From: an uncultured Pseudomonadota bacterium
GTDB taxonomy: Bacteria; UBA10199; JACPAL01; GCA-016699445
Length of the DNA stretch: 64,000 bases
Direction: 5' to 3'
NCBI GenBank assembly: GCA_964555055.1
Contig: CAZKQW010000004.1
Coordinates: 145,674-209,673 of the forward strand
Position 1 is the first letter of the stretch, and every line of letters begins with the position of its first letter. Positions 6,595 through 60,093 of the stretch are shown piece after piece. A program made the translations under genes and the position numbers. The notes beneath the pieces were generated by a model. That model searched no databases. It saw only the letters and a program-made list of their open reading frames with translations, and was not told where the DNA came from.

Positions 6595-7388
6595 ATAAAA
6601 AGAAATTACTGAATGCGGCCGTCCAAGCCGCCCGAGAGGCGGGGGCGATCCAGAAAAAGGGGTGGGGCAAGAAACACCGCATCGAGTTCAAAGGCGAGAT
6701 CAACCTCGTCACCGAGGTGGATAAGGCCTGCGAGAAGAAAATCGTCTCGATCCTTTCCAAGGCCTTTCCGGATCATGATTTTCTCACGGAGGAGTCGGGA
6801 GCCCACAATAAAAAATCGGACTATAAATGGATCATCGATCCTTTAGATGGAACGACGAACTACGCGCATGCTTTCCCGTCGTTTTGCGTATCGATCGGTC
6901 TGGAGTATTGTGGCGAAGTCATGGTTGGCGTGGTCTATAACCCGATTCATGATGAGCTCTTCACGGGCATCCGCGGGCAAGGGGCTTGGCTCAACGGCAA
7001 GAAGATTTCCGTGTCTTCCATTCGAGACTTGAAGCGGAGCCTGCTCGGCACTGGTTTCGCTTATAATGTCCAAGTGGCTAAGGATAATAACCTCAATCAT
7101 CTCGGCAACTTCCTGAAACGGGCCCAAGGCATCCGCCGTATGGGCGCCGCCGCCATCGATATCTGTTACGTGGCATGCGGGAGGTTGGAGGGTTTTTGGG
7201 AGATGGAGTTGTGGCCATGGGACATCGCGGCCGGCTGCTTGATCTTGGAGGAAGCGGGCGGGAAGACCTCGATGTTCGACGGAAGCGCTTTGGATCTTTA
7301 TGGTAAACAAATCATCGTCTCCAATGGTAAGATTCATGAAGCGATGGTGCAGGTCGTGCAAAAAGGGATGAAAAGCTTTGGCTGCTAG
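6591..7388 (+). CDS. suhB: inositol monophosphatase family protein
   Basis: 'WIIDPLDGTTNY' and 'WDIAAG' IMPase signatures. Confidence 0.85.
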   Translation: MNKKKLLNAAVQAAREAGAIQKKGWGKKHRIEFKGEINLVTEVDKACEKKIVSILSKAFPDHDFLTEESGAHNKKSDYKWIIDPLDGTTNYAHAFPSFCVSIGLEYCGEVMVGVVYNPIHDELFTGIRGQGAWLNGKKISVSSIRDLKRSLLGTGFAYNVQVAKDNNLNHLGNFLKRAQGIRRMGAAAIDICYVACGRLEGFWEMELWPWDIAAGCLILEEAGGKTSMFDGSALDLYGKQIIVSNGKIHEAMVQVVQKGMKSFGC

Positions 7389-8028
7389 CGTCCAAAAAGA
7401 GATCATCGAGGTTTTGAGAAAAATCCAGGAGAGGGCTTTTCCGGAAGCCGAGGCTCTTTTGAAGAATTTATTGAACCAATCGGAGATAAGCCGGGAAAAA
7501 GAAGCCCAGGCTTTAGCGCTTTCAACTTTTGGTGTGCTGGAAAAAGTCCGGGAAGATTATAAAGCCGCTTGGCGCTACTATGAAAAAGCTGAAAAGCTTC
7601 TTCCGGACGATCCCTCCTTAAAACTCATCATGAGCCAGCTCTTGATCCATGAGTTTTCCCAATACGACGCAGCGATCAAAAAAATGAAGAAAGTGCTCAC
7701 CCTAGCCAAAGGCTCCGCCTCATTCGAACACCAGGCCCATGCGATGATGGCGATCGCTTATTTAAGGAAGGGTGATCGGAAGAAGGCGATCGAAATGCTC
7801 CGGGAGTCGATGCGGGATGATTTTGCGGCAATTTCTTCCGCTCAGAATATCAACCTCGAGGTGATCGAGGCTTTTCTGGCGCGCCATTTCGAAACCGAAT
7901 CCTGCCGTGTTTATCTGGAAAAAGCCTTAACTTTGGCGAAATCCAAAAAAGAGAACTCCGAAATCCGCCTTTTCACGAAGCTTCTCGAGGGTTTGTCTCA
8001 TGCCCACGAAACACACGTATTCCATTAA
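7378..8028 (+). CDS. TPR-like helical repeat hypothetical protein (TTG start)
   Basis: 216-aa ORF. First in-frame start after the suhB stop is TTG at 7378. Helical TPR-like composition. Confidence 0.45.
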   Translation: MAASVQKEIIEVLRKIQERAFPEAEALLKNLLNQSEISREKEAQALALSTFGVLEKVREDYKAAWRYYEKAEKLLPDDPSLKLIMSQLLIHEFSQYDAAIKKMKKVLTLAKGSASFEHQAHAMMAIAYLRKGDRKKAIEMLRESMRDDFAAISSAQNINLEVIEAFLARHFETESCRVYLEKALTLAKSKKENSEIRLFTKLLEGLSHAHETHVFH

Positions 8029-8433: not shown

Positions 8434-11400
8434 ATGAAAAAAAATAAATTGTGGTTGATTTCGATAGGAGTAGTTCTCTTAACGGGACTTTCAGTTTTTT
8501 ATCATTTGACTCGAACCTCAACCGTCAGTCGGTTGTCAGAAGGGAATGTAGAGACGCTCCCGTTGGAAGCTCAATTTGTTGTATCTGAAACTTTAGGGAA
8601 AAGTCAGAAGGTGTATCAGGCCAAAAAAAATAACGACCATTATGTTTTCTTAAATCCCTCCCAATCCCTTGAAATGCGTTTTGACGGAAACGGGGCTCTG
8701 GTGAAAACGAAACAGGGGACATGGGGACTCTCTTGGGTCGCTCAACAAAACTCTTTGGGTGGGAGCTCTCTAACTCCTTCTTTTCGAGTAGAACAAAACC
8801 GTGTGACTTATGATCACGGAAGCATTGAAGAGTGGTACGTCAACGGACCCTATGGGATACAACAAGGTTTTACTCTTAAGAAAAAAAGGTCTGAGGATGG
8901 AAATCGAGTCACTCTTCGTTTGAAAGAAGTGGGGAATTTAAAAGGGTATTTAGAAAATGGCACGTTGAAAGTCACTCCTAGTGCGAAGCAGGAAAGTAAT
9001 AAAAGCGAGGTTATTACTTACGGAGGACTTTATGCGTATGATGCCCAAGGCAAAAGCCTTCCCGTTTGGATGGAAAAAGAATCAGATCATCTCCTGATTC
9101 ATGCGGAAACTTTAGGTGCGGATTATCCGATCGTGATCGACCCTTTTATAAGACAAGCGCGGGCTTTGACTTCTTATCAGGGTTTTTTTGCTGGTCATGT
9201 AAATAATATTTTCGGTTGGTCCACGGCTTTGAGTGGAAATCGCATGGTCATTGGTGCGCCTTACCAAAACGTTGGTTCTAATGTAAGGCAGGGTGCTGCG
9301 TATGTTTTTTCGCGTTTAGGTACAAGTTGGGTTCAAGAGGCGGTATTAATTGCCGGTGATGGTGCTGCTGGAGATATATTTGGTGCGGCAGTGGGGATAG
9401 ATGGGGATCGGATCGTTGTGGCAGCGCCTTATAATGATATAGGTAGTCATCCCAATCAGGGAGCTGTCTATTTTTTCAGCTTTTCCTCCGTAAGCGAAGC
9501 TTGGTCACAGGAGCAAAAAATAGTCACTTCGAATGGTATGTCGAATGATAACCTAGGTTATTTTTCCGAGCCCACGAGAACCCTCGTCATTGAAGGGGAC
9601 ACGCTTGTTGTAGGCTCCTTAACGGCGAATGGGGGTCGAGGAGCTGTATATGTTTTTAATTATTCGATCCCCTCTTTGTGGACTCAACAACAAGAACTTA
9701 CGGCGATCGATGGGAATGTAGGTGATTTTTTTGGTAGTGCTATTGCGTTGAGCGGCAATATGATCATTGTTGGGGCTTACGGGGATGATATCGGTAGCGT
9801 AGCAAATCAGGGGGCTGCTTACGTTTTTACCCGCCTTAACCCTACTGCTGAGTGGCAGTTAGTCGAACGACTTACAGCGAATGATGGCTCTAGCGATGAT
9901 AACTTTGGTTTTGCTGTGGCTGCTTCTGGAAATCGCGTTGTTATTGGCGCTCCCAATAAAGCTGTTGGGATGAACTATAGCCAGGGCGCTATCTATGTTT
10001 TTACATTAACAGGTTCGACATGGAGCCAGGTACGCATTGTAGCGGAACGTGGGAGTACTAATGAGCTATTAGGCAGATCTATATCTTTTAATGGGTTGCG
10101 GATATTAGGTGGGGCTCGAGGAATTAGTGATAGATCCTATCGGGATGTAGGGGGTGGTTATCTATTTTCTCTCGTAGGGAGCTCATGGCTACAAGTGCAA
10201 AAGCTGACTATTAATGAGAGCCGTAATACTGCTTGGTATGGGGATAGTGTTGCGCTCGATGGTGATTATCTCTTATTAGCAACTGGTCAGGTGCCTAAGA
10301 TTTATGTATTCCACCGCTCTTCCGACACAACGCCTTCTTGGACTCAGCAACAACAAGTTAAAACTATAGGGGGAGCACAAGGGGATCAATTCGGTTACTC
10401 TGTTTCTGCCACCTCGGATCGTATTGTTGTAGGAGCTCCTTATCAAGACAAAGACGGTAATATGGACCAAGGCGCTGCATTCGTGTTTCTTAAGTCTCCT
10501 ACTACGAATCAGTGGTCTCAGGAACAGGCTCTATTCGCCTTTGACGGTGCCGCGGGAGACCATTTCGGAAGCTCTGTCGCTATGAATGCTAACGGTAATA
10601 AGATCGCCATTGGAGCGCCTGATGTGGATGCTAGACGTGGGCCGGGACAAGGGGCGGCTTATATATTTGTGAGATCCCTCACAAGCCCTCCTTGGAGTGA
10701 GGAGCAAAAGCTTGTCGGTTCTGCAACCGAGGCAGGGGATCATTTTGGTTCTTCCATTTCCATGAATAATGAACCCTCCGTTAATGAGCGTGTTATTGTC
10801 GGCGTTCCTATGGATGATGTGGGGGCAACGGTTGATCAAGGTTCTGTTTATACGTTTTTTTATTCCGCTTTTGACACGCCTTCATGGTCTGAAGAACAAC
10901 AATTGATCGCAGATGACGGCGCGACTCGTTCGCATTTTGGTCACTCTGTCTCTCTTAATGGAGATCGAGTTATTGTCGGTGCTCCCGATCATCGCGTGGG
11001 CACTAATGATGCACAGGGTAAAGCTTACGTATTCTCCTTCTCGTCCACTAGATGGGCCCTTGAGCAAGCATTGACCGCGAATAACGGGCTCTCCAATGAT
11101 CAGTTTGGTTCTGCGGTGTCTATCCACGGAGATGGCTTGGTTGTTGGAGCTCCAGGTCGTGCAAGAGACCCTTCGCATAATTATGAGGGAGCTGCTTATA
11201 TTTTTTCACATTCCCCTTCAGCCCCGTCCCCTTGGAGCCAAGAGATATATTTAACACCTTCAGACAGTGGTGATACTCACGGTTTCGGCAAGTCTGTTTC
11301 CATTCATGGGGATATCGCCCTTGTAGGGGCTCCTACCCATTCAATAGGAAGTACGGTTGCTAGGGAAGGTTCTGCTTACCTATTTTTTATAAATGGTTCT

Positions 11401-11949
11401 AATTGGACAGAAGAACTCCTAACCTCTGTTAGGGCTAATGGTGCAGAGTTTGGATCTTCCGTAGCTATCAGTGGAGGTACAGCCGTTGTAGGGATACCCC
11501 TCGACGATGCAGGGATTGCCTCTTTAACAGATCGTGGTTCTGTGGATGTTTTTTTAGTATCGGCTTCTCCTATCATTACTTCTTCAGGTGGAAGCGGCGG
11601 CTCAGGTGGCACAGGAGGTGCTGAAGTGGGTGGCAGTGGTGGTTCGGAAACGGGAGGGAGTGGTGGCACGGGAGGTGCTGAAGTGGGTGGCAGTGGTGGT
11701 TCGGAAATTGGAGGGAGTGGTGGCACTAGTGAAGGTTCGGGTGGAACTTCAGGTTCTGGCGGAGACACAGGCGTAATTGGTGGTGGTGTGAGCGGGATTT
11801 CAGGAGGAGGCGGATCTAATGCTTCCGGTGGAGTTTCGGGAGCCAGTGGCATTGGTGGTGGTGATGTGAATCCTGGTGCAGGGGATGGCGCCACTGAGAG
11901 TAGCGGGGGATGTTCCTGCCATGTGACACCGGATAGTGAACTGAAATAA
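8434..11949 (+). CDS. giant secreted FG-GAP (integrin-alpha-like beta-propeller) repeat protein with Gly/Ser-rich C-terminal linker and terminal 'SSGGCSCHV' motif
   Basis: ATG at 8434 with AGGAG 8 nt upstream (the ORF track's GTG at 8401 is less likely). Signal/TM MKKNKLWLISIGVVLLTGLSVF. At least 12 repeats of 'FGxSVAxxGxxxxxGAP....QGAAYVF'. Tail GGSGGTGGAEVGGSGGSE x2 ... GGGDVNPGAGDGATESSGGCSCHVTPDSELK. Confidence 0.8.
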   Translation: MKKNKLWLISIGVVLLTGLSVFYHLTRTSTVSRLSEGNVETLPLEAQFVVSETLGKSQKVYQAKKNNDHYVFLNPSQSLEMRFDGNGALVKTKQGTWGLSWVAQQNSLGGSSLTPSFRVEQNRVTYDHGSIEEWYVNGPYGIQQGFTLKKKRSEDGNRVTLRLKEVGNLKGYLENGTLKVTPSAKQESNKSEVITYGGLYAYDAQGKSLPVWMEKESDHLLIHAETLGADYPIVIDPFIRQARALTSYQGFFAGHVNNIFGWSTALSGNRMVIGAPYQNVGSNVRQGAAYVFSRLGTSWVQEAVLIAGDGAAGDIFGAAVGIDGDRIVVAAPYNDIGSHPNQGAVYFFSFSSVSEAWSQEQKIVTSNGMSNDNLGYFSEPTRTLVIEGDTLVVGSLTANGGRGAVYVFNYSIPSLWTQQQELTAIDGNVGDFFGSAIALSGNMIIVGAYGDDIGSVANQGAAYVFTRLNPTAEWQLVERLTANDGSSDDNFGFAVAASGNRVVIGAPNKAVGMNYSQGAIYVFTLTGSTWSQVRIVAERGSTNELLGRSISFNGLRILGGARGISDRSYRDVGGGYLFSLVGSSWLQVQKLTINESRNTAWYGDSVALDGDYLLLATGQVPKIYVFHRSSDTTPSWTQQQQVKTIGGAQGDQFGYSVSATSDRIVVGAPYQDKDGNMDQGAAFVFLKSPTTNQWSQEQALFAFDGAAGDHFGSSVAMNANGNKIAIGAPDVDARRGPGQGAAYIFVRSLTSPPWSEEQKLVGSATEAGDHFGSSISMNNEPSVNERVIVGVPMDDVGATVDQGSVYTFFYSAFDTPSWSEEQQLIADDGATRSHFGHSVSLNGDRVIVGAPDHRVGTNDAQGKAYVFSFSSTRWALEQALTANNGLSNDQFGSAVSIHGDGLVVGAPGRARDPSHNYEGAAYIFSHSPSAPSPWSQEIYLTPSDSGDTHGFGKSVSIHGDIALVGAPTHSIGSTVAREGSAYLFFINGSNWTEELLTSVRANGAEFGSSVAISGGTAVVGIPLDDAGIASLTDRGSVDVFLVSASPIITSSGGSGGSGGTGGAEVGGSGGSETGGSGGTGGAEVGGSGGSEIGGSGGTSEGSGGTSGSGGDTGVIGGGVSGISGGGGSNASGGVSGASGIGGGDVNPGAGDGATESSGGCSCHVTPDSELK
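11605..11718 (+). repeat. 57-nt tandem repeat x2 (plus partial third unit) encoding GGTGGAEVGGSGGSE[T/I]GGS within the gene-1 linker
   Basis: Units start at 11605, 11662 and 11719; near-identical DNA. Confidence 0.8.
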
Positions 11950-11962
11950 AAAAGGTAAAGGT

Positions 11963-14900
11963 ATGAGAAAAAATCCGATTTATTTTTGTATAAAATTCTT
12001 GCTCTTTTTGTTTTTAGTTTGCTTTTTAACTCCAAACTCCAAAAGTTTTGCTGCGAACTTCGTTGTGACCGACCCTACAGATTCTATCCAATGTTCTAAC
12101 CCCATGACGAATTGTTCTCTTCGAGGAGCGATTCGCCTCATCAACGGCGGGACGGATGTGAACAATACCATCACATTAAACGGGCAGACGTTCGTCTTGG
12201 ACCTTTCAGGGACCGCCGCGGACGACAATAACGCGACCGGCGATTTGGACATCGTGGCTCCGGGACGGAGAGTGAGTATCGTCGGGGCGGGATGGGGTTT
12301 GACGCGTCTTTCCGTTTCGCCTACGGCAAGGTTGCGTGATCGAGCATTGCACGTCGTGGGGGGGGAAGTATCCTTGCGGAATTTAAGTATCGTAGGTGGA
12401 TGGACACGAGGAAATGGAGGGGCGATTTACGTCAACGCCGGAGGCACATTAATCCTGAATCAGGTGCAATTGGCGAACAACCACAGTGAAAACGGTTGCG
12501 GCGGCGCCATTTTCAATTCCGGCGTGTTAAACGTCTCGGAAGTCTCCATTGCTTCCAATACCGTGGGAAGAGAAACCGGCAATTTTACCGGCTATACTGG
12601 AGGTTCTTGGTTCGAGAGCGGAGGATTAGGGCCGGATACGCGAGGCTATTTCGAAGACCCTTCCAACGGAGGCGCTATTTGTAATAGCGGTTCGGTGGCG
12701 CGGGCTACGGTCACGAATACCACCATGAATGGAAATACGGCGCTGCGCTACGGAGGCGCGATCTATAACGAGCGTGGCGCCGTGATGGATCTTACGAATG
12801 TCACGATCAGCGGAAACACAGCGGCCGGCAGGTATTGGCGTAACGATGATGGGAATGATTTGAGCATCAGGGTCGGCCAAGGCGGCGGTATTTTCAACTC
12901 CTCGACGCTCAACGTCTTGAACGCCACCATTATCAATAACCAAGCTTCAGTCTCCGGAGGAGGAATACATAACGGCGCGGTAGCACTTCGCTCGAGCGAT
13001 AACCAAGCCGGTACGACGGCCCAAGGGTCCGGCGCCTTTGCCATCAGGAACAGCATTTTACAGCATAATATACTGACGAGGTCAGGAGATCCCGGGGAAA
13101 ATTGCGGCGCCTCTAATAACAGAAACGACGTCATCCTCACAACCTTAGGTAATAATATTTCAGACGACAATACGTGTACTGGCGTTTTTACTTTAGAACG
13201 GAACGATATGAGCAATATCACCGTTCCTCTTTCCGACTTAGATGTTCACCATGGAGGGCCCAATATCCTGTACCTTCACCACTTATTAGGTGGGCGCATG
13301 GTCCCGAACCCGGCTTTTGATACGGTGACATATAACCCTGAGTCTTGCCCACCTACCGACGGTAGAACATTTAGCCGGCCTCTATCCGCCCGTTGCGATG
13401 TTGGGGCTTTCGAGGCTGATCGAGTCATGGGAGCTTCGAATCCGTTTTTATCCGGACGCGAACTGAGCTTTGGCTTGCCCCTCGCCGTGGGAACCACGAG
13501 ACAAAGGACTTTGATCATTAGTTCCATTGCTTCTGGGATTATACAATCCTCTATGGAAAATCTCCTTCGTTCGGTTCAAGTGACGGGCTCTGACGCTTCA
13601 TTGTTTACGGTTAGCTCTACGGATCCGGATTGCATGGGCTCTCAATTGTCCTCTACTACTCCGTGCAGCCTTGTGATTACTTTCGCTCCGAACTCACAGG
13701 GCACTAAGAGGGCGCGTTTGACCGTTGCTTCTAACGCCGTCAACACCGTCGATAATCTTTTTACGATCGATCTCGTGGGTGTGGCGAATGCCGTGACGAC
13801 GCCGACATCTCCTCCCTTGGGTGAAAGCGTTTATTTCAGCGCGGACGAGATGAGCTTCGTTTCGCCCGTCGGCGGTTCGACGTCCCAAACCGTCACCGTG
13901 GAGAATATTTCGCCCGATCCCATTGCTGTTGATTTCGTGGTTTATTCCGGCGCCGGCTTTTCGGTGGTTTCGACCTGTAGCTCGACCGAGCCCTTGAGAG
14001 CGGCGACGCGACAAAGTCAGTTCAATCCTCTGACGAGGGAGACTTATTATTACTACACGGGTGGCGGTACCTGCACCGCGACCATCAGCTTCGCTCCCAG
14101 AGATACAATGCCGGTGAGAGGAAATGCTAGTTTCGATATACGTAGGGGCTCCGAAGGTCCCATCAGGAGGACGATGACGTTAAATGGACAAGGAGTGGAA
14201 TCCAATATCGTTCTTGAAGGTGCTCCAAGCTCCCAGATGCAGTTCGGTAATGTGATGTTGGGAAGGCCTGTAAGCTTGGGGTTGACCATAAGAAACACAG
14301 GACAGAGGGATTTGAGTCTTTCTAGAATTGCTTTGGCTCCAGAATCTGATCCGGCTTTTTCCGTGAACAATCCTTGCGTTCCTTCTTTAGTTCCTAATGG
14401 CTCTTGCCAAGCAACTATCACTTTCAGGCCTAGTGCCCTAAGGGCTTATGAAGCTCGTTTGGCTATCGAGAGTAATGATCCTGATTCACCGACAATGTCG
14501 GTCAACTTGATCGGTCAAGGCGTGGCGGGCGTCATTATGACTCTTCAGGATCATGACGTGACAGGCTCTCCGGGCGGTACCGTCGAGGTAAGATTGACTA
14601 TCGAAAGAAGCGGTTTCGTCGAGGCGATACCCGTCACTTTAGAGGGAGGAAGTCTTTTCACCGCGGATGAATTGATCATCCCCGCGGTCGATACTTTGCC
14701 TACGGCGCCTATCGCTTACAACCGCAGCTTGGTTATCCGTATTCCTTCCAATATCGGAGCAGGAGTCAGCTATGGTTTAGCAGTTGATGCCAGGGTCAGC
14801 GATATGATTTCTGCGCAAAGGGATAACGTCACGGTCCATATTGTGGAAGCGACAGCAGGAGGGTCCGGCGGTAGTGGAGGTTCCAGCGACGGTTCTGGAG

Positions 14901-15220
14901 GAAGCGGCGGCTCGAGTGACGGTTCCGGAGGCTCTCCTTCGGGAAGTGGAGGGGAAACGGCGGGGTCCGGCGGCAGCGAGCCGGGAACGGGTGGAAGCTC
15001 GGAAGGGACCGGGGGAGGCGTTCCGGGAGGTGCGGGGACGGGCGGCGCTGAAGCAGGTAGCGGTGGCGACGTCGGCGGACCCGTCGGCGGTGGCAGCGGC
15101 GTCTCGGGTGCCGGAGGGGCAGGAGGCGCTGGTGGCGGAGACGTCAATCCAGGCGAAGGTCCCGGAGCCGACGGCAGCAGCGGCGGGTGTTCTTGCCGCG
15201 TGATATCAGAAGCGCCTTAA
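11963..15220 (+). CDS. giant secreted protein: CSLREA N-terminal motif + right-handed parallel beta-helix repeats + Ig-like/choice-of-anchor-type domains + Gly/Ser-rich linker + terminal 'SSGGCSCRV' motif
   Basis: Signal peptide, 'TNCSLRGAIRLINGG' (CSLREA-type). Repeated 'GGAIYN..G...NVTIsGN' beta-helix turns. C-terminal GS-rich tail ...GGGDVNPGEGPGADGSSGGCSCRVISEAP. Confidence 0.8.
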   Translation: MRKNPIYFCIKFLLFLFLVCFLTPNSKSFAANFVVTDPTDSIQCSNPMTNCSLRGAIRLINGGTDVNNTITLNGQTFVLDLSGTAADDNNATGDLDIVAPGRRVSIVGAGWGLTRLSVSPTARLRDRALHVVGGEVSLRNLSIVGGWTRGNGGAIYVNAGGTLILNQVQLANNHSENGCGGAIFNSGVLNVSEVSIASNTVGRETGNFTGYTGGSWFESGGLGPDTRGYFEDPSNGGAICNSGSVARATVTNTTMNGNTALRYGGAIYNERGAVMDLTNVTISGNTAAGRYWRNDDGNDLSIRVGQGGGIFNSSTLNVLNATIINNQASVSGGGIHNGAVALRSSDNQAGTTAQGSGAFAIRNSILQHNILTRSGDPGENCGASNNRNDVILTTLGNNISDDNTCTGVFTLERNDMSNITVPLSDLDVHHGGPNILYLHHLLGGRMVPNPAFDTVTYNPESCPPTDGRTFSRPLSARCDVGAFEADRVMGASNPFLSGRELSFGLPLAVGTTRQRTLIISSIASGIIQSSMENLLRSVQVTGSDASLFTVSSTDPDCMGSQLSSTTPCSLVITFAPNSQGTKRARLTVASNAVNTVDNLFTIDLVGVANAVTTPTSPPLGESVYFSADEMSFVSPVGGSTSQTVTVENISPDPIAVDFVVYSGAGFSVVSTCSSTEPLRAATRQSQFNPLTRETYYYYTGGGTCTATISFAPRDTMPVRGNASFDIRRGSEGPIRRTMTLNGQGVESNIVLEGAPSSQMQFGNVMLGRPVSLGLTIRNTGQRDLSLSRIALAPESDPAFSVNNPCVPSLVPNGSCQATITFRPSALRAYEARLAIESNDPDSPTMSVNLIGQGVAGVIMTLQDHDVTGSPGGTVEVRLTIERSGFVEAIPVTLEGGSLFTADELIIPAVDTLPTAPIAYNRSLVIRIPSNIGAGVSYGLAVDARVSDMISAQRDNVTVHIVEATAGGSGGSGGSSDGSGGSGGSSDGSGGSPSGSGGETAGSGGSEPGTGGSSEGTGGGVPGGAGTGGAEAGSGGDVGGPVGGGSGVSGAGGAGGAGGGDVNPGEGPGADGSSGGCSCRVISEAP

Positions 15221-15376
15221 ATGACGTCGAGTGTAAATGAGAAAGGTGCCCGGATCCTTTTCCGGGAGCCTTTTGTATTTTTGGGCTTTAGGGGGAAAAG
15301 TGTTTCGCCGTTAGGGTTCTTATCAGTAGTGTCAACGCTTTTCATTAAAGACGGGTCGATAAACTGGAGAATCCCT

Positions 15377-18310
15377 ATGAAGAACTTCTCATCACGTTTC
15401 TTCGCATTAAGCCTCATGGCCATTTTTCTGTTTTCTTTACGAGCGTTCGCCGATTTGAATCGTTGGAGCGCGATCGGCCCTGGGGGAGGTCAGGTGACCG
15501 CTCTCGTTTCCACCAGCCCTACGGAGTTTTACGCCGGAACGGCGACCGCGGGGGTTTGGAGGGGAACGGTCGATGGCATCGGTGCTGTCTCCTGGCGAAA
15601 CGTAAACGGGACCGGAGAGGATTCCTTAGGGGACATCTTCAATGAGAAAGCGAGAAGGATCCAAGCCTTGAAAGTCAGCGGCGGCGTTATTTTCGTGGGG
15701 ACGGAAACCGATGGTGTCTGGAGGGGGGCCGTCAGGATCGATGGGACGGTCGCCTGGAGTCCTCTCAATGGGACGGGAATGAGTCGATTAGGCGGCGCTC
15801 CGTCGGGTAGCGCTTATAACGTACGCGCCTTGGAAATCTCGGGTTCGACGGTTTACGCCGGAACGAGCAACGGTGTCTGGAAAGGGGTTCTCGCGAGCTC
15901 CGACGGGCAAGTGAACGCGGTTTGGAGTCCTTTCAACGGATCGGGCGTCACAGCCTTGCCCGCGTCTGCTGGCATTAAAGTTCTACTGCTTTCCGGGTCC
16001 GTCCTCTTTGCGGGCTTAAATAATACCCTGCCGGATGGTTTGGGGGGAGGCGTTTGGAGAGGGACGATTTCTGAAACGGACGGTGTTTCAGATATTCAAT
16101 GGAGGGATTTTAACGGAACGTCTGGGGGCGCCTCGTTAGGATTAGATGGTCGTGAACCTTTGGCGCGCTATGTCAACGATTTAGCTCTGTATGAAGTGGA
16201 AGGGCTCGGGGAATTTCTTTTCGTTGCGACTAATGGCGCGGGCGTTTGGACTTCTTACTCTGACCCACCGGCTGCCTGGGGTTTGCTGACCTCCGGGCCG
16301 GCCCGATTGAATAATACGGATCGTGTCGTCGTGCGTTCCATTAAAACCCTTAGAACGGGTCCCACGACGCATTTATACGCGGCGACAGAAGGGGTCGGTA
16401 TTTGGAAATGCAATCTCAGTGCTTTGGGAACCACGCAGATCACACCTTGGTCCGCGGCCAATGGAGGATCCGGTGCGATCTTAGGAGGCAGGAACGGCTC
16501 TTCGGCTTTTTACGGGAACGTTTTGTCGGTCAACGGAGCGGAAGTCGTCGCCGGCACTGGCGCCGGAGTCTGGAAAGGGACGCCGCAGCCTTCCGGGGAT
16601 ATGAACTGGAGCGATTGGAACGGTTCCGCAACATCTCCACTTTTGGCCCATAACGTCACTTCCGTCGCTACGGCCGGCTCCAGGGTTTATGTGGGAACGG
16701 ATTCGGGAGTCTGGAAAGGAACGCGAGACTCCGATGACCATTATACGTGGACCGAATTTAACGGTTCCAGCACGGCCACCACCACGACCGTCTTGGGGGG
16801 ATTCGTCAATACTTTAGGTGTCCCTGTGAGTTTTCTGGGTGGCAGACAGGTGAAGTCGATCGTTTTCGACGGCGACGACTTAGGTTCGGATTTGTATGTG
16901 GCCACACAAAATATGGGTGTTTGGAGGGGACGAATCACGGGCTCCGAGGATTCCGAGAGCGTGTCATGGAGCGATTTCAACGGATCTTCGCCATCCGATT
17001 CCCTAAACGGCGACGATAATCGGTTCAAGCCCATCGTCTCCTCGTTGACGTCTTCGTCCTCCGCGGACGGCCGCGTTCTTTATGCGGGTTTGATAGGCAT
17101 CGATAGCGGCACCGTCTGGAGGAGGAATCTGGCTTCCGGAGGATGGCAAAGCCTTTGGTCGTCAAGGCATGCCGTAAGATCCCTGAACGTGGCGTTGCCC
17201 AATTTGTACGTCGGTCATGACGGTGGGATCAGACGGGTTTTATTAGGAACTGGAGCTACTTTTGATTTCAACGGGGAAAGCTCTACATCCTTGATGGCCG
17301 TCGGAAATCTTAACGCGCTTCACGTGAGAAGTCTTTTGTCGGAAGGTGGAACGCTGTATGCGGCCACGGAAGCCGGGATTTTTAAAGGCACCGTTGCGAC
17401 GGCGGAGGACGGCGTCATGAGCGTTCAGTGGACGAACGGTAATGGACCGGGCCTCTCCGACTATTTGGACGGAACTGTGAGGGCGAAAAGCAGTTCCTTG
17501 GCTTATCTACGTAACCGCTTATACGTGGGGGCTATGGCGGGAGGCGTATGGAAAGGGGATGAGGCCGGAGGGATCCGGTGGAGCGATGCGAATGACGGAT
17601 TGCCTTATGTCAGCGTCAATTATTTAGGGCTTTCCGCGGACCGCGCTTCCATCCTCGCGGGAACAGGCCATTCCTTGTTTCAATTCACGCCAGGCGCCTT
17701 CTGCGGCAACAGTCTCGTGGAATCCGGAGAGACCTGCGACGACGGTAATACTGTTACCACGGACGCGTGCCCCAGATGCCAGCGGGCGCGTTGTGGAGAC
17801 GGGTTTACACGCATGGATATTACGGATCCTACCCATCCCGCCTACGAACAATGCGATTCCGGTACGAACTGCGATAGTCAGTGTCGTTTAATCGTAGGTG
17901 CTGGCGGTATTTCTGGAAGCGGATCCGGCGGAGAGTCGGGAGGCTCTGGAGGGACTTCGGAGGAGGGTACGGGTGGCGCTCCCGATGGCATGGCTACTGG
18001 AGGGGGGGCAGAACCTTCTACAGGCGGAACATCAGGGGACTCGGGTAGCGGTGGGGATGATGCGGGTACGGGGGGAGGCGCTCCCGGAGGTATCGAAACC
18101 GGTGGCGTTCCTGGCGAAGAGTCGGGGATAGGCGGCGCTGAAGAAGGTAGTGCTGGCGACATCGGAGGCCCTGTCGGCGGTGGTAGCGGCGTCTCGGGTG
18201 CCGGAGGGGCAGGAGGCGCTGGTGGCGGAGACGTCAATCCAGGCGAAGGGCCCGGAGCTGACGGCAGCAGCGGCGGTTGCTCCTGTCATGTGACGCCTGA
18301 GATGTATTAG
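15377..18310 (+). CDS. giant secreted repeat protein: about 13 'GT..GVW[RK]G ... W..[FL]NG[ST]' propeller-like repeats + Myxococcus-type cysteine-rich repeat + Gly/Ser-rich linker + terminal 'SSGGCSCHV' motif
   Basis: ATG at 15377 with GGAGAA RBS and signal peptide MKNFSSRFFALSLMAIFLFSLRAFA. The ORF-track start 15221 lacks an RBS or signal. 'CGNSLVESGETCDDGNTVTTDACPRCQRARCGDGF...EQCDSGTNCDSQC' resembles the Myxococcus cysteine-rich repeat. Tail ...GGGDVNPGEGPGADGSSGGCSCHVTPEMY. Confidence 0.8.
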   Translation: MKNFSSRFFALSLMAIFLFSLRAFADLNRWSAIGPGGGQVTALVSTSPTEFYAGTATAGVWRGTVDGIGAVSWRNVNGTGEDSLGDIFNEKARRIQALKVSGGVIFVGTETDGVWRGAVRIDGTVAWSPLNGTGMSRLGGAPSGSAYNVRALEISGSTVYAGTSNGVWKGVLASSDGQVNAVWSPFNGSGVTALPASAGIKVLLLSGSVLFAGLNNTLPDGLGGGVWRGTISETDGVSDIQWRDFNGTSGGASLGLDGREPLARYVNDLALYEVEGLGEFLFVATNGAGVWTSYSDPPAAWGLLTSGPARLNNTDRVVVRSIKTLRTGPTTHLYAATEGVGIWKCNLSALGTTQITPWSAANGGSGAILGGRNGSSAFYGNVLSVNGAEVVAGTGAGVWKGTPQPSGDMNWSDWNGSATSPLLAHNVTSVATAGSRVYVGTDSGVWKGTRDSDDHYTWTEFNGSSTATTTTVLGGFVNTLGVPVSFLGGRQVKSIVFDGDDLGSDLYVATQNMGVWRGRITGSEDSESVSWSDFNGSSPSDSLNGDDNRFKPIVSSLTSSSSADGRVLYAGLIGIDSGTVWRRNLASGGWQSLWSSRHAVRSLNVALPNLYVGHDGGIRRVLLGTGATFDFNGESSTSLMAVGNLNALHVRSLLSEGGTLYAATEAGIFKGTVATAEDGVMSVQWTNGNGPGLSDYLDGTVRAKSSSLAYLRNRLYVGAMAGGVWKGDEAGGIRWSDANDGLPYVSVNYLGLSADRASILAGTGHSLFQFTPGAFCGNSLVESGETCDDGNTVTTDACPRCQRARCGDGFTRMDITDPTHPAYEQCDSGTNCDSQCRLIVGAGGISGSGSGGESGGSGGTSEEGTGGAPDGMATGGGAEPSTGGTSGDSGSGGDDAGTGGGAPGGIETGGVPGEESGIGGAEEGSAGDIGGPVGGGSGVSGAGGAGGAGGGDVNPGEGPGADGSSGGCSCHVTPEMY

Positions 18311-18336
18311 GCTTCATAAAACGGAAAAAGGAAAAA

Positions 18337-18365
18337 GGCGCCCGGGAGACCGGGTGCCTTTTTTG
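18337..18365. terminator. bidirectional Rho-independent terminator (GGCGCCCGG-gaga-CCGGGTGCC + T-run) between convergent genes
   Basis: 9-bp GC stem with one G-U, followed by TTTTTTGCT. The reverse strand also has a T-rich tract. Confidence 0.6.
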
Positions 18366-18387: not shown

Positions 18388-19107
18388 TTATGGTTTGAAT
18401 GAGCCTTTCAAGGAATAATAACAGCCTCTATTTTTGCCCTTTTTCCGGATCCACGGCACCGAGAGGTCTTTAAGCGCCTGTTGCCGGCTAACGCTAAAAT
18501 GAATCGCTTTCAGGTAATCCCCTTGACGGAAATGTTTTTGATGGGACGCTAAGTCTCTCAGGATATTCAGTCTGACATCGGTATCATAATGATAGATCCT
18601 CCGCGCCGGAGAAGCGTCTTCCTTTAGCGCGGGGCGATCGGCCGCTAAAAAGCCCCATTTTTTGAAAGCCCAAAGTGGCTTCGAAATGACCTCATTCATT
18701 TTCGACCCAGCGACTTTATAAAGGCTTTTATAGAAAAGCTGGGAAGGTAACGGTTGAGCACCCGTTAAGGCGTATTCTAAAAGATCCGATTTTCTTGTTT
18801 CGAGAACGAATTCCGAGATTACCCCCAGGATCGGCAGAGCCTGGCATCGTACCAATTCCTTCTTCCAGACGATGGGGTCCACTTGAGGGTCCGTTTTTGA
18901 AAAATATGCAATGAGGATTGCCAGGAGGCGTGGATCGTAGCGGGATTGTAAAATGGACAAGGTCCAAAAGGACTCCGGAGAGAGTTTTTTGAAAAGAGAC
19001 GCGGGGGTGTTCCTGCCTTCCGCCGGGGCTCCGTGGTGACTAAGCTCGAAATAAAGCCGGGAAGATTCCTTTTCGTTTAAAGGGATATGCTGAAGGATGT
19101 CCGTCAT
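18388..19107 (-). CDS. hypothetical protein, possible HEPN-domain partner (C-terminal R-x4-H 'RDLASH') of upstream nucleotidyltransferase
   Basis: 239-aa ORF overlapping the upstream gene by 4 nt (ATGA), which suggests an operon. 'ILRDLASHQKH' lies near the C-terminus. Confidence 0.45.
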   Translation of the reverse strand: MTDILQHIPLNEKESSRLYFELSHHGAPAEGRNTPASLFKKLSPESFWTLSILQSRYDPRLLAILIAYFSKTDPQVDPIVWKKELVRCQALPILGVISEFVLETRKSDLLEYALTGAQPLPSQLFYKSLYKVAGSKMNEVISKPLWAFKKWGFLAADRPALKEDASPARRIYHYDTDVRLNILRDLASHQKHFRQGDYLKAIHFSVSRQQALKDLSVPWIRKKGKNRGCYYSLKGSFKP

Positions 19108-19634
19108 AAATCCACCCCAAGCTCATCGCAAATATCCGATAAAAAATCCGAGGCGCGTTCGGCGCCTGGGATTTTTTTGGCCTTTAGTTCGTCAATGCGT
19201 CGATCCACCAGTTTTACGTCTGTATGCCGCCGGACAAGGGTTTTTGCGTGAGGAACATCCTTTTCGCGGCCTGCGAAGCATTTCATCAATAAAAGATCTT
19301 CCTTGCCTAAAGCCATGACATGAAGGTGTTCGCCGCGGAAGAGGGGCACGAGGCGTTTTTCGTAGTCGTTAGGAAGGACGAATAGGAACGTGCCATAATA
19401 ATCGTTCAGCCAATCTTGTGGGATGCCTAGCTCTCTTCCAACGGCACGTACCTCTTTCTTAAAATCGGCGAGTTCCATCGAAGACCGATCCGGAACGGCG
19501 TCGACATCTTGGGTCACGATGGGGATCCCGTGGCCCACATTTAAAGCCGCGCCACCGCCGACGATAAGCCTTACGGTCTGGCCTAATTTTTTGTCTAAAA
19601 TCTCGAAGGCTTGGAGCATGTCCTCTTTTTTCAT
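19104..19634 (-). CDS. minimal nucleotidyltransferase (Pol-beta superfamily, MNT-like) protein
   Basis: 'LIVGGGAALNVGHGIPIVTQDVDAV' fits hG[GS]...DhD. Start chosen at ATG 19634 (MKKEDMLQAF) because a consensus promoter lies immediately upstream. The ORF track extends to 19730. Confidence 0.5.
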   Translation of the reverse strand: MKKEDMLQAFEILDKKLGQTVRLIVGGGAALNVGHGIPIVTQDVDAVPDRSSMELADFKKEVRAVGRELGIPQDWLNDYYGTFLFVLPNDYEKRLVPLFRGEHLHVMALGKEDLLLMKCFAGREKDVPHAKTLVRRHTDVKLVDRRIDELKAKKIPGAERASDFLSDICDELGVDL

Positions 19635-19640
19635 AAGATT

Positions 19641-19669
19641 ATTATGACAACTAAAAATAATATTGTCAA
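19641..19669 (-). promoter_or_regulatory. near-consensus sigma70 promoter TTGACA-17-CATAAT on minus strand, -10 only 6 nt from the ATG (leaderless transcript)
   Basis: Reverse complement of 19635-19675 reads ctatttTTGACAatattatttttagttgtCATAATaatcttATG. Confidence 0.45.
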
Positions 19670-19698
19670 AAATAGAATAACCAGAGTAACCATTGAAA

Positions 19699-20580
19699 AT
19701 GGCCCCTCTCATGAAATCTAAAAAGATCAAAATTCATGGATTAAGCCACCAATTCTACTTTTGGGGTTCTCCTAAAAAGCCCAAACTTTTTTTGTTCCAC
19801 GGGTGGCTCGATACGGCGGCGAGCTTCGACTTCCTTTGCCAGTATTTGGAAAAAGACTTTTATTGCATCGCACCGGACATGAGGGGCTACGGGAAAAGCG
19901 AGCATGGGAAAAGCGACCTGGGTTACTTTTTCTATGAATATGTGGCCGATGTGCATGCCGTCTTGAGTTATTTTTCTCCGCAGGAGCCCGCCCGCGTTTT
20001 AGGCCATTCCTTAGGCGGCGCGATCGCGTCCTTTTACGCAGGGTCTTTCCCGGAGCGCGTCAGCCATTTCATCAACGTCGAAGGCTTCGCCGTGCGCGAT
20101 AATCCTCCCGACCGGGCTCCGGAAAAGGCTCGGAAATGGATCGAGGAGTTGGAAGGAAAGCGTTTCCAATCCTTTCCGGACCTGTGCTCTTTCGCCAAAC
20201 GTCTTGTCCAAAACAACCCTCGGCTTCCGAGGGATCGGGCGCTTTTCTTGGCTCGATTTTTGACGAAAAGAGTGGGGCCTAAAAAAAGGTTTACGATGGC
20301 GGCCGATCCCTTGCATAAACTCTCCGACCCTTACGCTTTGCCGAAGGAGTATCATTACAGTTTTTGGGAGAAGATCGGGGCTCGGTGTTTATTGGTCTGT
20401 GCTCAAAAATCGGAGATGAATATTTGGGTGCAAACCCAAGATTTGAAGAAGCAGCTGCGCGAATGGCGGTCGCACTTCCCGAAAGTAAGTCGTTGGGTCA
20501 CGATTTCCGATTGCGGCCATATGGTGCATCATGAAAAACCGGAGGCTTTAGCAAAGGAAGTCTTGGCATTTATCAAATAA
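19699..20580 (+). CDS. alpha/beta-fold hydrolase
   Basis: 'LFHGWLDTAASF' and nucleophile elbow 'GHSLGG'. Start ambiguous (TTG 19693, ATG 19699 or ATG 19711). Confidence 0.75.
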   Translation: MAPLMKSKKIKIHGLSHQFYFWGSPKKPKLFLFHGWLDTAASFDFLCQYLEKDFYCIAPDMRGYGKSEHGKSDLGYFFYEYVADVHAVLSYFSPQEPARVLGHSLGGAIASFYAGSFPERVSHFINVEGFAVRDNPPDRAPEKARKWIEELEGKRFQSFPDLCSFAKRLVQNNPRLPRDRALFLARFLTKRVGPKKRFTMAADPLHKLSDPYALPKEYHYSFWEKIGARCLLVCAQKSEMNIWVQTQDLKKQLREWRSHFPKVSRWVTISDCGHMVHHEKPEALAKEVLAFIK

Positions 20581-20603
20581 GAACTCAAAAGTTGAATGTC
20601 CTC

Positions 20604-21413
20604 ATGAAAAATATTTTAAAGACGATCGTAGAACATAAGAAGTTAGAGCTTGAGGCCGCTAGAAGAAAATCATCGCTTAAGGAAATGCGTATGAAGGCGC
20701 AGGATACCGAACCGGCCCGAGATTTTCTCGCGGCTCTGAGTGTCGGTCAAGAGATGTCGCGACCACCTATACGCATCATCGCTGAAATAAAAAAGGCATC
20801 CCCATCGGCGGGACTGATCCGCTCTGATTTTGATCCGGATCGCCTGGCGCATGAGTATGAAGACGGCGGGGCCGCATGCGTTTCCGTCCTGACGGACGGC
20901 CGATTTTTTCAAGGTCATTTAGACTACATTGGCATCGTGAAAAAAGCCGTCGGATTGCCGATTTTAAGGAAGGACTTCACGATCGACGAATACCAAATCT
21001 TCGAAGCGCGAGCAGCGGGTGCCGACGCTATTTTATTGATCGTCCGTATTTTGGAAGACGCGCAATTAAAGGATTACGCGGACATCGCTCATGAATTAGG
21101 TTTGTCGGTCCTGGTGGAAGCTCATGATGCCAAGGAAAAGGAAAGGGCCTTAAAATCGGGCGCTCGCATTTTGGGGGTGAATAACCGTAATTTAGATACC
21201 TTGAAAATCGATTTGAAAACCTCCATTGAACTTTCCCGTGATTTGCCAAAAGGTTTATGCTTTGTGGCGGAGAGCGGTCTTTCTGCCCCGAATGATGTGG
21301 CAAATCTGTATTCTCACGGGATTTTTCGATTCTTAATTGGAGAAGTTTTTATGAGGCATGAGGATCCGCAGGCTTGCCTCCAATCTTTTCTCGGTTTTTC
21401 TAATGACTTCTAA
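20604..21413 (+). CDS. trpC: indole-3-glycerol phosphate synthase
   Basis: 'IIAEIKKASPSAG', 'ILRKDF', 'IGVNNRNL' IGPS signatures. The ORF track starts at TTG 20592; the first ATG is at 20604. Confidence 0.85.
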   Translation: MKNILKTIVEHKKLELEAARRKSSLKEMRMKAQDTEPARDFLAALSVGQEMSRPPIRIIAEIKKASPSAGLIRSDFDPDRLAHEYEDGGAACVSVLTDGRFFQGHLDYIGIVKKAVGLPILRKDFTIDEYQIFEARAAGADAILLIVRILEDAQLKDYADIAHELGLSVLVEAHDAKEKERALKSGARILGVNNRNLDTLKIDLKTSIELSRDLPKGLCFVAESGLSAPNDVANLYSHGIFRFLIGEVFMRHEDPQACLQSFLGFSNDF

Positions 21414-26574: not shown

Positions 26575-27765
<1,191 letters not shown>

Positions 27766-42520: not shown

Positions 42521-43711
<1,191 letters not shown>

Positions 43712-58778: not shown

Positions 58779-59291
58779 ATGAAATTCAAGATTCTTCTCT
58801 TCATCGTGCTCATCGCCATCGTCGCTTACGGTATTGCGATTCATGACCGACACGAGCCGGTCGTCGACGTGGGTAGCACGGCCCCCGCCATTAACTTGCC
58901 TTCAAAACAGGGGTTTGTCTCCTTGGAAAGCTATCGGGGGAAGAAAGTGGTTCTAGTGAATTTTTGGGCCACGTGGTGTCCTTCTTGCCTCCGTGAGATG
59001 CCTTCCTTGGAGGCCTTAAAGAAAAGCTTAGAAAATGCCCCGTTTGAAGTGTTAGCGGTCAGCGTCGACGAGCAAGGATGGCCAGTCATCGACGAGTTCT
59101 TGAAAAGAATGCCCATGACCGTTCCTATTTTGTTGGACGTGCAAGGAATGGTCTCGGCCCAGTATGGGACCTATCAATTGCCGGAATCGTATTTGATCGA
59201 TAGAGAGGGAACGGTTGTCAAAAAATACATAGGGGCCATGAATTGGATGGACCCTGAAATCCTAGGAGGAATCCAAAATGCCATTCAATAA
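58779..59291 (+). CDS. TlpA-like thiol:disulfide oxidoreductase (thioredoxin fold, membrane-anchored)
   Basis: N-terminal TM and 'NFWATWCPSCLREMP' CxxC motif. Confidence 0.8.
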   Translation: MKFKILLFIVLIAIVAYGIAIHDRHEPVVDVGSTAPAINLPSKQGFVSLESYRGKKVVLVNFWATWCPSCLREMPSLEALKKSLENAPFEVLAVSVDEQGWPVIDEFLKRMPMTVPILLDVQGMVSAQYGTYQLPESYLIDREGTVVKKYIGAMNWMDPEILGGIQNAIQ

Positions 59292-60093
59292 GACAAAAGC
59301 CTTGTACCTACTGTTGTTCTGTAGCCTTCTAGTGTCCTGCTCTAAGGATCCCATCACCGGAAAAACGACGTATAATTGGTTTGGTATCGAAAAAGACCCT
59401 CAGTTTGGGGAAGAAGTGTTGACCGGACAGTTGACTGAACTCCGTAAGAAGGGCGCTAAGATCGACGAAGACGCCGATCCAGCGATGACTCGCAGGATCC
59501 GCCAGATCACGCGTAAGATCGCCGCCGTCTCGCATTACCCGAATTTCCCTTATGAAGCGCATTACGCGCAAATGGATATCGTGAACGCCTGGTGCGCTCC
59601 CGGGGGTAAGGTCATGGTCTACAGTGGCTTATTCGATCCCCAAAAAGGTCTGGTGAAGAAATCGAGCGAGGACGAATTGGCGGCCGTTCTTGGTCACGAG
59701 ATCGCCCATGCGACCGCCCGTCACGTTACGAAAGCCATGAGCCGTAATATGACCGTGATGGCGGTGGGGCAGGTTGCGGTATCGGCGATCGGGGCTTCTG
59801 GAGGCGGTGTGGCCCAAAACGCCTTCAATCAAGCGATCGTCCAAGGCATCAACCTTTATATCCCGGCTTATAGCCGCGGGAACGAGGCAGAGGCAGATCG
59901 TATAGGTATTATGTACGCCGCAAAAGCCGGCTATAACCCTCAGGCTGCCGTCGATCTATGGTACCGGGCTTGTCAAAAGAAGGGAAATAGTACGGACCTT
60001 TACGCCTCTCACCCCTCGAGCTGTGACCGCGCCAAGTCTCTAGAGGCTCTGTTGCCGGAAGCCATGGCCGAGTATCAGAAAAACCACCGCTAA
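59278..60093 (+). CDS. M48-family zinc metalloprotease, lipoprotein (BepA/YcaL-like)
   Basis: Lipobox 'LLVSCSKD', 'LGHEIAHATARH' HExxH, downstream 'EAEADRIG'. Confidence 0.78.
   Translation: MPFNKTKALYLLLFCSLLVSCSKDPITGKTTYNWFGIEKDPQFGEEVLTGQLTELRKKGAKIDEDADPAMTRRIRQITRKIAAVSHYPNFPYEAHYAQMDIVNAWCAPGGKVMVYSGLFDPQKGLVKKSSEDELAAVLGHEIAHATARHVTKAMSRNMTVMAVGQVAVSAIGASGGGVAQNAFNQAIVQGINLYIPAYSRGNEAEADRIGIMYAAKAGYNPQAAVDLWYRACQKKGNSTDLYASHPSSCDRAKSLEALLPEAMAEYQKNHR

Follow-up and report, generated by a model that had tools for sequence, protein, structure and literature searches.

A C-terminal cysteine-pair tail without a transmembrane helix on unrelated, predicted exported proteins of a UBA10199 bacterium

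Introduction

How do three large proteins with different passenger domains come to share one C-terminus, and what could a short cysteine-containing peptide do there without a transmembrane (TM) helix? This question is raised by three adjacent genes, here named P1, P2 and P3, in a stretch of 64,000 nucleotides (nt) of contig CAZKQW010000004.1 (positions 145,674 to 209,673, referred to as the window) from an uncultured bacterium of the candidate phylum UBA10199. Among prokaryotes, every curated C-terminal sorting signal of this class has three parts, a motif, a TM helix and a basic cluster. In MYXO-CTERM these parts are a Cys signature (GCGC consensus), the TM helix and an Arg cluster (Haft 2023 preprint; Guo, Haft and Wall, mBio 2025). 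According to the working model, a protein exported by Sec is retained at the inner membrane by its TM helix, lipidation of the Cys is predicted, myxosortase cleaves distal to this residue, and the type II secretion system carries the product to the surface (Haft 2023; Guo, Haft and Wall 2025). The Cys residues are required, and Myxococcus xanthus TraA without its tag goes into the medium (Haft 2023; Guo, Haft and Wall 2025). Lipidation by an Lgt-like enzyme is a hypothesis only. In this study, we describe a tail that is not a member of this family and that is best read, from sequence comparison, as a variant without a TM helix that is related to the Cys-signature C-terminal tags and is very narrowly distributed.

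Results

Three tandem genes encode the same C-terminal tail

P1, P2 and P3 lie in tandem on the plus strand (Table 1), with a gap of 13 nt between the P1 stop and the P2 start. P1 and P2 end in TAA (11947-11949 and 15218-15220) and P3 ends in TAG (18308-18310). A first-pass annotation, made from the sequence alone, had described three giant tandem proteins with unrelated passengers and a common TM-less tail, and the open reading frames (ORFs), translations and domain models agree with that description. Its sizes for P1 and P2 (1171 and 1085 amino acids, aa) are correct, and its 978 aa for P3 become 977 when the protein is read from MKNF. The ATG at 15377 is argued to be the true start of P3 because the terminator-like hairpin of the P2/P3 gap falls inside the longer ORF.

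All three C-termini consist of a Gly/Ser-rich linker of about 100-110 aa, followed by GGGDVNPG.G.GA..SSGGCSC[HR]V and a stop after 5-7 further residues, slightly fewer than the 6-8 initially counted after the Val. In the six-frame translation of the window the full motif occurs three times only, every time closing an ORF, and it is therefore not a product of chance. Within the P1 linker, a 57-bp tandem repeat is found at 11605-11726 (2.1 copies, 95% matches), and the length of the P1 stalk is likely to vary by slippage.

A TM helix is absent from these ends: the maximum hydropathy over 11 residues is 0.05-0.6 in the last 30 residues of the carriers, which include three proteins from other assemblies (P0004, P0005 and P0006, see below). 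A basic cluster is absent as well, with 0-1 Lys or Arg after the Cys pair in all tails. SSGGCSC is present in all six tails, and 4-9 residues separate its second Cys from the stop, which places this Cys 5-10 residues from the end. The residue after CxC is His in five of the six and Arg in P2. Downstream of the stops, all reading frames run into the start of the next gene or into a terminator, and no segment combining a TM helix with Arg residues is found. Since the same TM-less end recurs in three other independent assemblies, a local sequencing artefact is excluded. In an AlphaFold2 model of P0004, linker and tail are unstructured with a predicted local distance difference test (pLDDT) score of about 26-33; the model was built from an alignment of 2 sequences and has a mean pLDDT of 56, so that it is weak evidence for disorder.

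All six carriers possess an N-terminal hydrophobic segment of the signal type. In P1 this segment (MKKNKLWLISIGVVLLTGLSVF) is a signal or an anchor and may remain uncleaved, and P2 and P3 have the Sec signals …SKSFA/ANF and …LRAFA/DLN. The passengers behind them are mutually unrelated by their matches to Pfam and NCBIfam models. P1 carries 13 FG-GAP_2 repeats. P2 has an N-terminal CSLRGA motif and a PMP-type (Chlam_PMP) beta-helix repeat, then a choice-of-anchor Q domain (residues 450-485) and an ASH/Ig-like choice-of-anchor D domain (737-842). The choice-of-anchor families NF012200 (D) and NF041518 (Q) are characterized by their pairing with differing C-terminal anchors. Their cut-offs of 45 and 25 bits are exceeded both by P2 (86.4 and 29.0 bits) and by P0006 (95.1 and 53.0 bits). 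P3 combines a repeated beta-propeller of the W-x-x-x-NG type with a Cys-rich myxo_disulf_rpt/DUF4215 repeat (776-802). The only two cysteines of P1, C1160 and C1162, are in the tail, and P0005 likewise has no Cys besides the tail pair.

The GC content at third codon positions (GC3) is 0.37 in P1, 0.55 in P2 and 0.59 in P3, and 0.50-0.68 in five genes of the neighbourhood that were measured. These values suggest that the P1 cassette differs in origin or age, for example through transfer from a relative of lower GC content.

Table 1. Coordinates of P1, P2 and P3, their C-terminal modules and the adjoining features (positions in the window).
Feature	Position	Strand	Remarks
P1 gene	8434..11949	+	1171 aa from ATG; ORF opens at GTG 8401
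P2 gene	11963..15220	+	1085 aa
P3 gene	15377..18310	+	977 aa from MKNF; mechanical ORF opens at 15221
P1 Gly/Ser-rich linker	11611..11853	+	about residues 1060-1140; 46% Gly over 1060-1157
P2 Gly/Ser-rich linker	14879..15130	+	about residues 973-1056; 48% Gly over 973-1073
P3 Gly-rich linker	17945..18220	+	about residues 857-948; 43% Gly over 857-965
P1 tail, GGGDVNPGAGDGATESSGGCSCHV + TPDSELK	11854..11946	+	GGT-rich codons
P2 tail, GGGDVNPGEGPGADGSSGGCSCRV + ISEAP	15131..15217	+	
P3 tail, GGGDVNPGEGPGADGSSGGCSCHV + TPEMY	18221..18307	+	
P2 3' DNA block	15014..15203	+	87% identical (167/193) to P3 18101-18293
Hairpin + T-run, terminator-like, P2/P3 gap	15249..15276	+	within the mechanical 5' extension of the P3 ORF
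Hairpin GGCGCCCGG-GAGA-CCGGGTGCC + T-run, intrinsic-terminator-like, 3' of P3	18337..18364	+	
TPR protein, left border of the variable slot	7378..8028	+	216 aa; 69% identical to L001 and L002 counterparts
Rest of the variable slot before conserved trpC (20592-21413)	18388..20580	.	minus-strand pair + alpha/beta hydrolase

The tail peptide is retained through codon divergence

In the 24-codon motif block, P1 differs from P2 and P3 by 12-13 synonymous and 4-5 replacement codons, with 7 codons identical, and 19-20 of the 24 residues are conserved. Over linker and tail, GC3 is 0.32 in P1, 0.82 in P2 and 0.75 in P3. Because codons and GC3 of P1 are so different from those of P2 and P3, the same peptide has been kept through saturated synonymous divergence; at the DNA level, P1 can be aligned to P2 and P3 over about 74-81 nt only, with about 70% identity. 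Between lineages, 20-codon blocks contain 8-10 synonymous changes and SSGGCSC.V is invariant, in contrast to the 35% identity of the P2 and P0006 passengers and the 60-87% identity of housekeeping neighbours. These codon patterns indicate that the tail motif is under strong purifying selection on unrelated passengers, and this part of the initial proposal of a tag shared across such passengers stands. The identity between P2 and P3 has to be taken out of it in part. About 190 nt of their 3' DNA are approximately 87% identical and their tails are therefore alike partly through recent copying; the block marks a recent duplication or gene conversion of linker and tail.

The tail has a very narrow distribution

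An exhaustive hmmsearch with the tail profile (66-76 bits on its own proteins as a control) against 1.84 billion representative proteins, at a threshold of E<=1e-3, returned five proteins. Two were P1 and P2 themselves (P0001/P0002), and the others were P0004 (519 aa), P0005 (802 aa) and P0006 (1011 aa), in which the match lies at the extreme C-terminus (…GGGGPNPGVGPGADGSSGGCSCHVVR, …GDSVPPDVGPHADASSGGCSCHVTPEMY and …GDSVPPDIGPHADASSGGCSCHVTPEMY, respectively) and no TM helix is present. Thus, relatives do carry the motif, which the first-pass annotation had left to such a profile search. P0006 (QQR80859.1) is a homologue of P2 with 35% identity over about 1000 aa, which was missed by BLASTP with composition adjustment and found by phmmer and unadjusted BLASTP (E 5e-145). 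P0004 is related to P3, and P0005 has a different passenger, a DUF5122-like propeller. P0005 and P0006 end in the same 14 residues as P3 (SSGGCSCHVTPEMY). The core conserved over the six carriers is G..A..SSGGCSC[HR]V; the motif had been called invariant over its whole length, which applies to its SSGGCSC[HR]V core and not to the GGGDVNPG half, since the latter is private to the window genome and replaced by GGGGPNPG or GDSVPPD in the relatives.

P3 is found neither in a collection of 15 billion proteins, with either start codon, nor in the output of the exhaustive profile search. P1, P2 and EF-Tu of the same NCBI contig are in that collection, and the source annotation may carry another gene call or a pseudogene mark for P3. 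Word-indexed homologue searches with the tail profile and with full-length P3 came back empty; this is ascribed to the retrieval of candidates, where words from the linker probably prevailed, and is biologically meaningless.

At the DNA level, a strict pattern (GDVNPG, nine codons, GGCxC) gave no match in genome and metagenome collections, and is too strict because GDVNPG is not kept in the relatives. A pattern for the core found one real match in 185,579 GTDB species representatives, the P0006 gene in CP064976.1, and five that were out of frame and due to chance. In 241 million JGI metagenome records no real match to it was found, all eight hits being out of frame and due to chance. Such chance matches were mostly in high-GC DNA. 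CP064976.1 is a complete, circular metagenome-assembled genome (MAG) of 2.75 Mb, assigned to p__UBA10199 and o__2-02-FULL-50-16 by GTDB and to Myxococcota, bacteriap25, by SILVA. It contains the core pattern once, in a search that did not extend to more divergent tails. With one occurrence in this complete genome and all mapped carriers in one syntenic slot, the idea of a dedicated sorting tag operating at proteome scale was not borne out.

The tail resembles MYXO-CTERM and is not a member of the family

MYXO-CTERM (TIGR03901.2 / TIGR03382) is the substrate of the myxosortases MrtX, MrtC and MrtP, which belong to the CPBP family. Several properties connect the tail with MYXO-CTERM. It is located at the extreme C-terminus of Sec-exported proteins of adhesin or hydrolase type, after a disordered low-complexity linker. 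Its G-G-C-x-C contains two close Cys residues like GCGC, so that the Cys signature itself is present, and the cargo shares choice-of-anchor D and myxo_disulf_rpt domains. SILVA places the lineage next to or within the Myxococcota, and the tail resembles the end expected once myxosortase has cut a MYXO-CTERM protein distal to its Cys. At the equivalent position, a canonical MYXO-CTERM (SGCGCSDTGAGSSLLALLAVVFASRLARRRQAQGRA) is found in P0007, which is distantly homologous to P2 and of the choice-of-anchor D type; together with the choice-of-anchor domains of P2, this upholds the likeness to MYXO-CTERM noted at first.

As a positive control, the P0007 tail passed both TIGR03901.2 (22.3 bits, cut-off 20) and TIGR03382 (18.2 bits, cut-off 15.85). 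The best of the tails reached 11.6 bits (E 0.28) with TIGR03901.2 and aligned to positions 1-12 of the 34 in the model, and the other tails gave no match. Unlike MYXO-CTERM, the tail lacks both a hydrophobic TM helix and an Arg-rich cluster and stays below the curated cut-offs. It is found on 1-3 carriers at one locus, unlike MYXO-CTERM with its reported 3-73 carriers per proteome, and in a lineage that GTDB places in p__UBA10199, outside the Myxococcota and Bradymonadales in which MYXO-CTERM has been described. The tail falls outside the MYXO-CTERM family because two defining features of that family, the TM helix and the Arg cluster, are missing. Its likeness to MYXO-CTERM may reflect homology or convergence, since the match is below threshold and limited to 12 low-complexity residues.

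Another distant P2 homologue, P0010 (NCBI, 801 aa), reads …LIAVGMVLNRFRRQRGVLIAVLLIGAILAACGGGSDGG… in its C-terminal part, where a TM segment and an Arg cluster run straight into a lipoprotein-like signal and a further domain. The arrangement resembles a sorting signal in an internal position or two fused ORFs, and recalls MXAN_5598, for which an internal MYXO-CTERM has been described.

Other known C-terminal systems fit less well

PEP-CTERM, GlyGly-CTERM, LPXTG, the C-terminal domain of the type IX secretion system and other curated NCBIfam and Pfam C-terminal sorting models gave no match at thresholds of E<=1 for window proteins, E<=0.1 for P0004-P0006 and E<=10 for isolated tails. JDVT-CTERM, served by MrtJ, is also a Cys-containing C-terminal signal with one or few targets per genome, not proteome-wide. 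It is, however, built of three parts (a DP motif, a Leu-rich TM helix and a basic cluster) and lies in an operon with its CPBP protease, whereas the tail lacks a TM helix and its neighbourhoods in three genomes lack a CPBP gene. The families of this kind have their own marks, namely the DP motif with adjacent MrtJ in JDVT-CTERM, a Pro in the TM helix in Synerg-CTERM and CGP in CGP-CTERM. All three were rejected, as neither TM helix, basic cluster nor adjacent CPBP gene is present and the tails match no NCBIfam model at E<=10.

The eukaryotic CaaX box, which is processed by the CPBP enzyme Rce1 after prenylation of the Cys, is likewise a short, TM-less C-terminal Cys motif; the residues beyond its Cys are variable and dispensable, and the lipid is attached before trimming. 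CPBP enzymes can act on long or short signals (Haft). The second Cys of the tail is 5-10 residues from the end and not at -4, and unlike a CaaX protein the tail is extracytoplasmic after Sec export. A CaaX box proper was rejected, since it requires a Cys four residues from the C-terminus of a cytosolic protein, and here 4-9 residues follow in proteins with Sec signals. A lipoprotein lipobox ([LVI][ASTVI][GAS]C after an N-terminal signal, for Lgt/LspA) does not fit a C-terminal motif with Ser at -3 (S-G-G-C). An RTX-type C-terminal signal of type I secretion, which stays uncleaved, is preceded by GGxGxDxUx nonapeptide repeats and occurs on proteins without an N-terminal signal peptide, is not compatible with the N-terminal signal segments and the missing RTX family match. 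A CxxCH site for heme c would require a different spacing from CxCH, and its His is Arg in P2. A 2A-like 'DVxNPG' motif was dismissed because the segment is not conserved in the relatives and the proteins have Sec signals.

The locus is a hotspot of passenger replacement

P0006 (locus L001, in CP064976.1) and P0005 (locus L002, from an independent short-read SRA assembly) occupy the same syntenic slot as the window cluster. It is bordered by a conserved TPR gene and trpC, with ftsK-lolA-comF-suhB upstream in all three. Between L001 and L002 the flanks are 96-99% identical and the passengers unrelated. Identity resumes over the last 262 nt, comprising linker, tail and terminator, at 94.7%, so that the replacement is clean and has its 3' boundary inside the linker. 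The window genome stands much further apart, with housekeeping proteins 60-87% identical; its tail end and terminator (18257-18363) are 76.9% identical to L001 12983-13089. Inferred from three genomes, this is a clear example of a hotspot at which predicted surface proteins are replaced and a constant C-terminal module is kept. One slot with unrelated passengers in near-identical strains, a constant 3' end with terminator and a relic also characterize cassette-type antigenic or adhesin variation; in contrast to such loci, no silent cassette archive, invertase or recombinase was seen.

The relic is found in L001 at 13755-13830, about 720 nt past the P0006 stop, and comprises the extreme 3' end of the tail ('*CHVTPEMY*') together with another terminator copy. 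Two small genes (one of 110 aa, one DUF2283) lie between P0006 and this relic, which resembles what is left of a second cargo gene after loss or disruption, or the result of an insertion that duplicated about 75 nt. In the window, the rest of the slot contains an overlapping minus-strand pair at 18388-19730, which encodes a 239-aa protein without family match and a DUF6036 nucleotidyltransferase and may be toxin-antitoxin-like. The same part of the slot in L001 contains different small genes (DUF2283, HTH_3).

A co-occurring gene for a CPBP, sortase-like or acyltransferase enzyme had been named at first as something to look for. None, and thus no myxosortase (CPBP core NF040914), is present near the slot among the scanned window genes and the Pfam-annotated calls of L001 and L002, a scan that covers these three loci. 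Since TPR domains bind C-terminal peptides and the TPR gene is always adjacent, its product came into question as the receptor of the tail; it was rejected because it has no signal peptide and is hence cytoplasmic. LolA, a PDZ/S41 C-terminal-processing peptidase, an M10-like peptidase and an M48 peptidase were rejected as processing partners, as housekeeping genes lie between them and the cluster. The M10-like peptidase matches the 'myxosortase-dependent metalloprotease' model over a stretch of 20 residues (E 1.5e-4, 20.9 bits, cut-off 250). The N-terminal part of the PDZ and S41 peptidase gene lies at window positions 1 to about 780 on the minus strand, about 8 kb upstream, and the gene is kept in L001 and L002. 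S41/PDZ enzymes recognise C-termini and this peptidase is tempting, yet there is no evidence that links it to the tail. At 58779-60093, a thioredoxin-like AhpC/TSA protein is directly followed by the M48 (HtpX/Ste24-type) peptidase, forming an envelope redox and protease pair.

The window contains tuf (EF-Tu) twice, at 26575-27765 and 42521-43711 (identical at 1190/1191 nt), one in a tRNA-tuf-secE-nusG-rplKAJL-rpoBC region and the other after fusA, a classic tufA/tufB gene-conversion pair. Several housekeeping genes of CP064976.1 are broken up or shortened in comparison with the window and L002, namely ftsK, LolA (105 aa), ComF (two pieces) and OMPdecase/pyrF (two pieces). Indel errors that remain in a MAG from long reads typically have this effect, and gene calls of this genome need care.

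Discussion

With moderate confidence, we favour the explanation that the Cys pair serves to attach the passenger covalently to the envelope, by way of a lipid or a disulfide. Adhesin-type proteins of this UBA10199 / 'bacteriap25' bacterium would be exported by Sec, and their common functional C-terminal module would be a disordered stalk of about 100 Gly/Ser-rich residues with SSGGCSC[HR]V at its end. The gene would directly encode the kind of end that a canonical MYXO-CTERM substrate has once myxosortase has cut it. After export, the exposed Cys pair would carry a lipid bound through a thiol, like the one postulated for MYXO-CTERM, or form a disulfide with an envelope partner, and the passenger would thus be held by its C-terminus. 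Stalk and anchor would stay constant, and the passenger cassettes ahead of them would be swapped by recombination at one chromosomal hotspot. Within this explanation, common ancestry with MYXO-CTERM, location at the surface and any Cys chemistry are what we infer. A more specific version, in which SSGGCSC[HR]V ends are lipidated or coupled and displayed at the surface without retention by a TM helix or cleavage by myxosortase, seems doubtful to us. If true, such a TM-independent Cys-tag pathway would parallel CaaX processing in the periplasm, the tail would be a natural 'pre-cleaved' MYXO-CTERM, and the enzyme that modifies the MYXO-CTERM Cys would be able to act on a soluble C-terminus.

Several points weigh against an anchoring role. 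In MYXO-CTERM the TM helix holds the substrate for lipidation, and a tail without this helix may therefore not be lipidated; untagged TraA is merely secreted. The sub-threshold MYXO-CTERM match spans 12 low-complexity residues, and part of the similarity among the tails (P2 vs P3; P0005 vs P0006) stems from recent copying of DNA. No candidate gene for an enzyme or partner lies near the locus in the window, L001 or L002. Finally, there are 1-3 carriers per genome, every mapped one in a single slot, and the tail is found in just four assemblies.

The most serious alternative, which we still judge rather unlikely, is that the carriers are soluble secreted proteins. CxC(H) would then be a redox-active or metal-binding (Zn/Cu) end on a flexible stalk, by which the proteins cross-link to each other or to a matrix or target. 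The lack of a TM helix for retention at the inner membrane and of an anchoring enzyme encoded nearby, and the release of M. xanthus TraA without its MYXO-CTERM, are what this alternative would lead one to expect. The His that follows CxC in most tails also fits it, and in P1 and P0005, where the tail holds the only cysteines, the pair cannot have a structural role within the passenger. However, a Cys-Cys-His site is not invariant, as P2 has Arg in place of His, and nothing points to a cross-linking partner. Moreover, the position of the tail, the disordered linker before it and the choice-of-anchor cargo are typical of C-terminal anchors.

It is less probable, and in our view a minor candidate, that the 3' module is mainly a recombination handle, conserved through gene conversion and not for a specific biochemical role of the peptide. 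The nearly identical 3' ends of P2 and P3 (167/193 nt common to both), the clean passenger swap between L001 and L002 with its 3' boundary within the linker, the relic of tail end and terminator in L001, and the variable small genes in the slot, some of them toxin-antitoxin-like, all speak for such a handle. Against it, P1 encodes the peptide in the opposite codon bias, with 7/24 codons identical and 19-20/24 residues conserved, and its DNA is too poorly matched to P2 and P3 for homologous recombination. The core is also invariant between lineages despite 8-10 synonymous changes in 20 codons. Both roles, that of the peptide and that of the handle, could coexist. An ordinary MYXO-CTERM or other tripartite Cys-CTERM hidden by a frameshift or assembly error, or a decaying pseudo-tag, is effectively refuted, which supports the first-pass annotation: the split ftsK, lolA, comF and pyrF calls of CP064976.1 would fit indel errors and the motif does match the start of TIGR03901, but six genes in four independent assemblies, one of them from short SRA reads, all stop 4-9 residues past the Cys pair, no frame downstream contains a TM and Arg segment, and purifying selection speaks against decay.

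Conclusions

The practical impact of these results is limited, as the lineage is uncultured, the motif rare and the proposed Cys chemistry hypothetical. The locus adds an example of a replacement hotspot from a candidate phylum that has hardly been studied. In MYXO-CTERM, the enzyme responsible for modifying the invariant Cys is still unknown, as is the need for a TM helix at that step. A strongly selected, TM-less tail with the same Cys signature and the same kinds of cargo would be a natural experiment on this question. If the tail is unmodified, the role of the Cys pair would lie elsewhere, in cross-linking or metal binding. If it is modified, the modifying enzyme would need no membrane-embedded substrate.

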